A stretch of 42,281 nucleotides of DNA from a virus (IMGVR_UViG_3300030122_000023); one strand, 5' to 3'. Positions 10,151 through 10,321 are shown, numbered from the stretch's first letter. Notes: generated by a model not told the origin, from the sequence alone. Made by a program: numbers and translations.

Positions 10151-10321
10151 TTATTGCTGTGATAAGATTTCGCTGATAATATCAGCTTTCTTTGTTGCGG
10201 TCAGTGAATACCCTTTACTCTCTGCCAGTGCCTTAATTTCTGCAACTGTAAGAGAGTTTAAGTATTCTTCCGTGAGTTTCCCACTAGCATTTACCGCCTG
10301 TGTAGTGGGATCTATTCCCCC
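10151..10321 (-). other. Candidate -1 frameshift extension of the major capsid protein (55 extra residues, HeH/SAP-like motif)
   Basis: Stop-to-stop open frame with no ATG/GTG/TTG. Translates to GGIDPTTQAVNASGKLTEEYLNSLTVAEIKALAESKGYSLTATKKADIISEILSQQ. Entered from a G5 run (10317..10321) two codons before the capsid TAG. Confidence 0.5.
10280..10309 (-). promoter_or_regulatory. Hairpin 7 nt downstream of the G5 run (possible frameshift stimulator)
   Basis: CCCACUA-16 nt-UAGUGGG on the minus strand, with a 7-nt spacer after GGGGG. Confidence 0.4.

Follow-up and report, generated by a model that had tools for sequence, protein, structure and literature searches.

We analysed the 3' end of the major capsid gene in IMGVR_UViG_3300030122_000023, a viral DNA stretch of 42,281 nucleotides (nt) that is called the window here over its full length. 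As judged from sequence comparison, the last two sense codons of the capsid mRNA are probably the site of a programmed -1 ribosomal frameshift, which would append a helix-extended-helix (HeH) domain to the capsid protein. All genes in the capsid region of the window lie on the minus strand. They comprise a scaffold gene (11256-11885; PF06810, E = 6.5e-18) upstream of the capsid gene, the major capsid gene itself (10312-11244; phrog_544 'major head protein', E = 1e-35), whose zero frame encodes a short form of 310 amino acids (aa), and a head-tail adaptor gene (9664-10137, ATG at 10137; phrog_541, E = 5e-20). The adaptor gene had been named a connector in the original prediction, which a model had made from the sequence, and is not a connector of the portal type. 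An AlphaFold2 model of the capsid protein (mean predicted local distance difference test, pLDDT, of 65) matches HK97-fold capsids of the PDB in Foldseek, including HK97 itself (best E = 1.5e-7). Together with the phrog_544 and HK97-fold matches, the gene order scaffold-capsid-adaptor indicates that the capsid gene, at whose 3' end the proposed shift site lies, is bona fide.

The capsid gene ends ATC ACA CCG GGG GAA TAG. The proposed -1 shift site is the slippery heptamer G_GGG_GAA (10315-10321, minus strand), and the zero-frame stop codon TAG (10312-10314, minus strand) follows it directly. The run of five G (G5) at 10317-10321, this capsid ending and the -1 relation of the downstream frame, all described in the original prediction, are borne out by the sequence. 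A gap of 174 nt separates the capsid gene from the ATG of the adaptor gene and is filled by an open reading frame (ORF) of 55 codons in the -1 frame (the extension ORF, 10151-10318, minus strand), which has no start codon and whose stop codon TAA (10151-10153) overlaps the ribosome-binding site of the adaptor gene (TAAGGAG). As had been claimed, the -1 frame stays open over 61 codons, six upstream of the GGA codon and the 55 of the extension, and contains no ATG, GTG or TTG. A TAA six codons ahead of the GGA codon closes it on the upstream side, and the zero frame closes right after the heptamer; entry into the -1 frame is limited to the last seven capsid codons in the window.

The predicted long form has 364 aa, 54 residues more than the short form, and reads ...ITPG(G/E)IDPTTQAVNASGKLTEEYLNSLTVAEIKALAESKGYSLTATKKADIISEILSQQ. 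Its junction agrees with the ...ITPG-GIDPTTQ... of the original prediction, to which we add the alternative ...ITPGE-IDPTTQ.... On G_GGG_GAA, GGG can re-pair perfectly to GGG, whereas the move from GAA to GGA depends on a G:U pair in the middle of the codon. Where such pairing is permitted, tRNA-Glu is able to re-pair on GGA (PMC10885494), and the junction residue could therefore be Glu instead of Gly. The heptamer as such is not rare, as GGGGGAA occurs three times in the window against 3.6 expected by chance. Its significance thus lies in its position and conservation and not in its occurrence, and occurrence of the motif alone was set aside as evidence.

Conservation was assessed in a lineage set of 84 sequences (the window, 80 IMG/VR contigs, one GenBank clone and two Logan contigs) and in a close set of 82 sequences (67 of them distinct) that omits the two Logan contigs. 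G5 followed by AATAR is present in all 84 lineage sequences. The 80 IMG/VR contigs, which come from about 13 datasets and whose capsids are 91-99% identical, all have G5 and then AATAG, except two with AATAA; the same G5 is found in GenBank clone MT835516 (Mexican faecal samples, 97% identical), and the same G5 site in the two Logan contigs, whose capsids are 81% identical. The extension ORF is open in 82/82 close sequences, always with exactly 55 codons and zero indels. Polymorphic sites in the extension number 10, 5 and 16 at codon positions 1, 2 and 3 of the -1 frame, and the ratio of synonymous to non-synonymous changes is 17:17 in this frame as against 6:28 and 3:31 in the other two frames; the capsid gene has 115:94. 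The always-open ORF and this substitution pattern suggest that ribosomes translate the extension in the -1 frame and that selection acts on it to a degree comparable with the capsid gene. In 78 of the 84 lineage sequences the extension lacks any ATG, GTG or TTG, and a search with the extension only, which gave a single 35-aa match among 5.8 billion protein clusters and two records in a phage collection, returned no close homologues with a start of their own. The protein cluster of the 310-aa capsid form has 881 member sequences.

A hairpin, which is a candidate stimulator of the frameshift, lies 4-5 nt 3' of the heptamer (10279-10310 by RNAfold, minus strand). It consists of a 7-bp stem (UCCCACU/AGUGGGA) with a 4-bp apical extension, has a predicted energy of -12.9 kcal/mol (z = -2.59) and is equalled in folding by 3 of 200 shuffles; a 7-bp hairpin just past the G run had been part of the original prediction and is found where it was placed. 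The 17 third-codon positions that run from the ACA codon to the end of the hairpin are invariant in the 67 distinct sequences, whereas about 36-40% of third positions vary elsewhere. Two polymorphisms that flank the stem (933 A/T and 965 G/A in alignment coordinates) are seen in all four combinations. The same constraint is seen at a larger distance in L084 (capsid protein 81% identical), where the 45 nt from CCGGGGGAATA to GTGGGA are identical to the window at 42 of 45 positions, while the flanking capsid DNA is roughly 70-75% identical (mostly 53-87% per 15-nt block) and the extension past the 45-nt stretch is diverged, with an indel. The usual spacing between heptamer and stimulator in -1 shifts is 5-9 nt. 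For GGG and GAA positioned in the P and A sites, respectively, the 4-5 nt that precede the window stem are at or just under this norm. A hairpin common to all lineages was not found, type A and type B HeH lineages (see below) folding no better than shuffles. The viral contigs L098-L101 have an unrelated 7-bp hairpin of similar geometry after the site (-18 kcal/mol, z = -2.1). An Rfam scan of 10000-10500 revealed no known frameshift element and one match at chance level (E = 0.87).

The extension is predicted to encode an HeH (Rho_N/SAP-like) domain, LTEEYLNSLTVAEIKALAESKGYSLTATKKADIISEIL (10163-10276, minus strand), as indicated by weak Pfam matches, profile comparison and AlphaFold2. The plausible HeH motif of the original prediction finds support in the profile of relatives and in the AlphaFold2 fold, whereas the window sequence by itself gives weak matches that stay below the Pfam cut-offs (Rho_N 15.6 bits against a cut-off of 24.9, SAP 13 against 23.9 and DUF7440 17.9 against 25). 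Among 14 related extensions, 11 match Rho_N at E <= 0.01, and a profile built from all 14 matches the C-terminal domain of FluMu gp35 (PDB 2OUT) with E = 1.9e-7 and the N-terminal HeH of Rho (3L0O) with E = 2e-4. In the AlphaFold2 model of the long form, helices at residues 326-331, 334-343 and 353-363 and an extended segment at 344-352 are predicted with pLDDT of 77-89, the alignment being shallow here.

The capsid family is large, with more than 5,500 matches and several C-terminal architectures, and the arrangement recurs among its distant members. In 80 prophages from GTDB species representatives (Lachnospiraceae, Oscillospiraceae, Ruminococcus and others) with capsids 48-67% identical to that of the window, 14 have at least five G in the last capsid codons, and all 14 of these have a -1 ORF of 24-54 codons that reaches the adaptor gene. 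The heptamer is G_GGG_GAA, followed by TAA, TAG or TGA, at nine of these loci, canonical G_GGG_GGT followed by TAA at three, G_GGG_GAG followed by TAA at one, and G_GGG_GGA with GCG TAG at one. The codon preceding GGG ends in G at every distant site, and the stop codon (TAG, TAA or TGA) stands directly after the heptamer at 13 of the 14 as well as throughout the window lineage. In L104 and L088 a -1-frame stop lies just three codons ahead of the zero-frame stop, so that the shift can be assigned to the heptamer. Eleven of the 14 distant extensions are HeH domains, of two sub-types, and the remainder are short basic tails. There are also natural controls that lack an extension although their capsid proteins end alike: L108 encodes ...ITPGE with the non-slippery codons CCG GGC GAG, and L154 has GGC GAG. 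As to whether homologues carry the domain in frame or with a start of its own, which the original prediction had raised, one relative (P0022, 58% identical) has a 352-aa in-frame capsid-HeH fusion with the junction GGC GAG AAA and no G run, and no close relative equips the domain with a start. Many other family members are 388-405 aa long and have an in-frame immunoglobulin-like (Ig-like) domain (PF18316), as in Dorea phage DO134P1. Judged from these sequences, the capsid C-terminus of the family is a modular attachment point, served by in-frame fusion or by putative terminal -1 shifts.

Several further variants of this region were observed. In the type A HeH relatives L104, L109, L119, L122 and L184, a palindrome, GCTATAGC, lies 6-13 nt past the capsid stop amid diverged neighbouring codons; it encodes part of G/S-Y-S, and no significant hairpin is predicted there. 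The contigs L098-L101 end CTG GGG GAA TAA, followed by a basic tail, and the G_GGG_G sites of L098-L101, L113 and L163 lead to -1 tails that are 24-34 residues long and strongly basic, for example ...TKVKRTRRKAVE and ...ATKRARKRTTN. In L166 and L167 (positions ~2070-2500), which come from Paludibacteraceae and Alphaproteobacteria bins of metagenome-assembled genomes (MAGs), the capsid genes end AAC CCC TGA and TCT TTT TAA. Each is followed by a -1 ORF of 136-140 codons with no early start codon, reached via C_CCC_TGA or T_TTT_TAA, and these ORFs are 52-61% identical to the in-frame C-terminus of the 419-aa L102 capsid protein. They are probably further terminal -1 shifts with other heptamers.

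The mechanism that we propose is as follows. Most ribosomes would read ...CCG GGG GAA and stop at TAG, giving the 310-aa capsid protein. A minority would slip back by one base on G_GGG_GAA, the P-site tRNA-Gly re-pairing from GGG to GGG and the A-site tRNA-Glu re-pairing from GAA to GGA through a G:U pair, unless the slip precedes filling of the A site. The junction would be ...SITPGGIDPTTQAVNASGK (Gly) for a slip in the P site only and ...SITPGEIDPTTQAVNASGK (Glu) for a tandem slip. The hairpin starts 4-5 nt downstream, or about 11-12 nt when counted from the P-site codon's first base, and so lies roughly at the mRNA entry; it probably aids the slip, and the adjacent stop codon may also do so. 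Slipped ribosomes would then read 54 more codons to give the 364-aa protein, with a flexible linker and the HeH domain at its C-terminus. We infer that the shift takes place on the ribosome and that the long form is built sub-stoichiometrically into capsids. That a chimera of capsid and HeH domain can be tolerated is indicated by the in-frame fusion of P0022.

The original prediction had left a programmed frameshift and an indel in a homopolymer side by side. The indel would be an error of sequencing or assembly in the G run, the true gene being an in-frame capsid-HeH fusion with G4 or G7; homopolymer runs are indeed error-prone, and an in-frame fusion does exist in P0022. Such an error is extremely unlikely to have produced exactly G5 in every lineage sequence across many datasets and assemblers, or 881 sequences in the cluster of the 310-aa form, or the same out-of-frame layout in 14 distant prophages with differing heptamers, and the junction of P0022 is itself free of any G run. 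The constancy of G5 and its recurrence in prophages with capsids 48-67% identical exclude the indel for practical purposes, and comparison with relatives supports the programmed frameshift instead. The same fusion in P0022, together with the many relatives that have no extension, could also suggest a decaying remnant, in which an ancestral in-frame fusion was broken by a frameshift mutation and the HeH domain is no longer expressed. We regard this as very unlikely, as the ORF is intact in every sequence and shows substitutions of the coding type, protein-level conservation of the domain extends over lineages with capsids of ~50% identity, and the slip site itself is under selection. A slip by the polymerase and not by the ribosome is harder to separate from the proposed frameshift: addition of one G or loss of two at G5, followed by standard decoding, would give the same long form, and sequence data cannot tell the two apart. 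Known cases of productive polymerase slippage involve about 7-9 or more A or T, for which five G are short. Moreover, what is conserved is a heptamer with a re-pairable A-site codon (GAA, GAG, GGT or GGA), a stop codon and a hairpin at ribosomal spacing, and sister lineages use C_CCC_TGA and T_TTT_TAA. Transcriptional slippage is therefore quite unlikely here, even though slippage on homopolymers is known in bacteria and phages (PMC5009743).

The only serious rival, unlikely as we consider it, is that the HeH ORF is a separate small gene, expressed from a non-canonical start in the window, from an ATG inside the ORF of relatives or by ribosomes that re-initiate past the capsid stop. Several observations favour it and weigh against a frameshift. 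A conserved Met of the type A relatives opens a possible 35-aa HeH ORF, which is picked up by gene callers, and in L088 the sequence AGGAG precedes this Met by 9 nt. In addition, a stand-alone HeH/LEM gene lies between the capsid and connector genes of a Streptococcus agalactiae phage whose capsid is unrelated, and the domain also occurs in FluMu gp35. The proposed frameshift also has weak points of its own: G_GGG_GAA is an imperfect X_XXY_YYZ heptamer, the hairpin is modest and, since its stem is invariant, left no compensatory changes to score, HeH lineages other than that of the window have no significant downstream structure (z from -1.5 to +1.3), and the window extension alone misses the Pfam cut-off for Rho_N. 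On the other side, the residue at the position of the type A Met is Leu (CTT) in the window lineage, which for the most part has no ATG, GTG or TTG at all, and no Shine-Dalgarno-like sequence precedes any near-cognate codon of the window extension. Upstream, the -1 frame invariably extends to the heptamer and is closed shortly before it, and protein-level conservation covers the residues from the slip site to the Met. Finally, the heptamer is conserved in the lineage and avoided by relatives that have no extension, and P0022 fuses the domain to the capsid protein. We prefer a programmed frameshift over a separate gene.

Frameshifts of -1 at the 3' end of a capsid gene have been described in Lactobacillus phage A2, in gene 10 of T3/T7 and in Listeria phages A118/A500 (PMC5009743, PMC5221750). 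These systems (gp5A/gp5B of A2, 10A/10B of T3/T7 and cps of A118/A500) resemble what is proposed for the window in that a tailed phage has a -1 slip close to where its major capsid gene stops, in a downstream RNA structure, which in the window is a predicted one, and in two products that share their N-terminus, the longer one having an extra C-terminal module. They differ in that A2 and T3 add an Ig-like domain, whereas the window would add a predicted HeH/Rho_N-like domain of ~40 aa, and in that the capsid family of the window (phrog_544, Clostridia gut phages) is not that of A2, T3/T7 or A118/A500. The heptamers also differ, the one in A2 being presumably C_CCA_AAA and that of the window G_GGG_GAA directly followed by a stop codon. 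Listeria phage PSA, which the original prediction had cited as a precedent, does extend structural proteins by recoding at the 3' end, but its shift is +1 (PMC5009743). PSA cps and tsh are alike in giving C-terminally extended virion proteins, with a stop codon or a pseudoknot as stimulator, whereas they shift +1 on a proline codon (CCC) and the window would shift -1 on a glycine run. A2, T3/T7 gene 10 and A118/A500 are closer precedents than PSA.

The heptamer has a precedent in another setting. GGGGGAA is reported to be the only sequence of the 'fivetwo' class of PRFect among about 1000 annotated tail-chaperone shifts of actinophages (PMC10885494). This actinobacteriophage tail assembly chaperone site (G/GT type) has an identical heptamer and the same proposed re-pairing of tRNA-Glu through G:U, but differs in gene, host phylum and product, and no role of an adjacent stop codon is described for it (PMC10885494). 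Within the capsid family, a speculative -1 capsid shift on A_AAA_AAA has been published for phiEf11, a distant member (PMC5221750). We considered Enterococcus phiEf11/phiFL1 as instances of the same feature and rejected them, as the capsid-adaptor gap of phiFL1A is only 14 nt with no HeH domain and the heptamer differs.

The domain itself is found elsewhere as part of separate genes. Streptococcus agalactiae phage vB_Sags-UPM1 encodes an 84-aa HeH/LEM protein between its capsid and head-tail connector genes (PMC10221047). FluMu gp35 (2OUT) and this HeH/LEM protein, both encoded beside major capsid genes, share the small domain with the window, and vB_Sags-UPM1 also shares the genomic slot. Each has a gene and a start of its own as well as additional N-terminal sequence, and the neighbouring capsids are unrelated, whereas the domain of the window is start-less and would be read from the capsid frame. 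The stand-alone gene of vB_Sags-UPM1 suggests that the association of HeH domains with head genes is broader than this capsid family. A comparison within the family is offered by the Ig-like domain of Dorea phage DO134P1, which is attached at the same C-terminal point as the HeH domain; it has ~90 aa, is in frame and is present on every subunit, whereas the HeH module is usually out of frame and hence presumably present on only some capsid subunits. In other viruses, capsid-protein extensions that arise by frameshifting project from the virion (PMC5009743). Together with the Ig-like domains at the same C-terminal point, this suggests that the HeH domain is probably surface-exposed. By this analogy, our guess is that it is most likely an accessory module on the capsid surface that would bind nucleic acid or another polyanion.

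Both capsid-gene frameshifts at the 3' end and the GGGGGAA motif were known before, so no new principle is involved. New and unannotated are the HeH domain as the probable cargo of a capsid frameshift, the terminal heptamer-plus-stop arrangement, which is conserved in many Clostridia prophages, and the capsid clade, which is common in the human gut. A literature search on HeH, Rho_N or SAP with capsid frameshifting, which covered few papers in subscription journals, found no description of this arrangement. The predicted long capsid form is wholly missed by gene callers, though the lineage is common in human gut metagenomes, and it suggests that HeH domains join the familiar Ig-like domains as capsid-attached modules. 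The conserved set of terminal G_GGG_GAA-stop sites in Firmicutes phages, with its natural controls, is also convenient for studying the interplay of stop codon and hairpin at a G:U-dependent heptamer. It is possible, though we think it rather doubtful, that HeH domains form a widespread, unrecognised class of capsid accessories, supplied interchangeably as a separate gene, as an in-frame fusion or by a -1 shift, with the frameshift setting a sub-stoichiometric dose. If this were true, the domain, as a binder of nucleic acid or other polyanions, could anchor particles to extracellular DNA, teichoic acids or mucus, or, if it faces inward, contact the packaged genome, and the capsid C-terminus would be a general docking point controlled by recoding (also by C_CCC_TGA and T_TTT_TAA for a domain of ~140 aa).

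Other observations concern the remainder of the window and the relatives. A tRNA-Ile gene with anticodon UAU, which reads AUA, lies just upstream of the scaffold gene (11964-12037, minus strand) and is kept in the window lineage and in L084; the same slot in relatives holds tRNA-Ile(UAU), Thr(UGU), Lys(UUU) or Gln(UUG). In the -1 frame, AUA is the codon that directly follows the capsid slip. A helper role of tRNA-Ile(UAU) in the frameshift was considered and rejected, as it is present in relatives that have no site (L105 and L110) and absent from most of those that have one (L104, L109, L122, L161 and others). Between the putative major tail protein and tape-measure genes, the ORFs at 7664-8134 and 7029-7664 meet at GCA AAA TAA TG (junction at 7655-7680, minus strand), the downstream ORF being in the -1 frame with its own ATG in the overlap. 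The A_AAA_TAA at this junction could be a -1 shift site of the tail-assembly-chaperone type; it likewise stands at the last sense codon before the stop and is followed by AUA, as at the capsid site. Contigs with Clostridia-type capsids were also found in Bacteroidota, Treponema, Kiritimatiellia or Alphaproteobacteria MAG bins (for example L126, L147, L148, L153, L166, L167, L170 and L182), and these odd labels probably reflect contamination by binning of phage contigs and not real hosts. In Streptococcus phage T12 (KM289195.1, 19857-20673), a homologous capsid gene is in two pieces, annotated as two coding sequences for a 'putative capsid protein', which could be due to a mid-gene frameshift or to a sequencing error.

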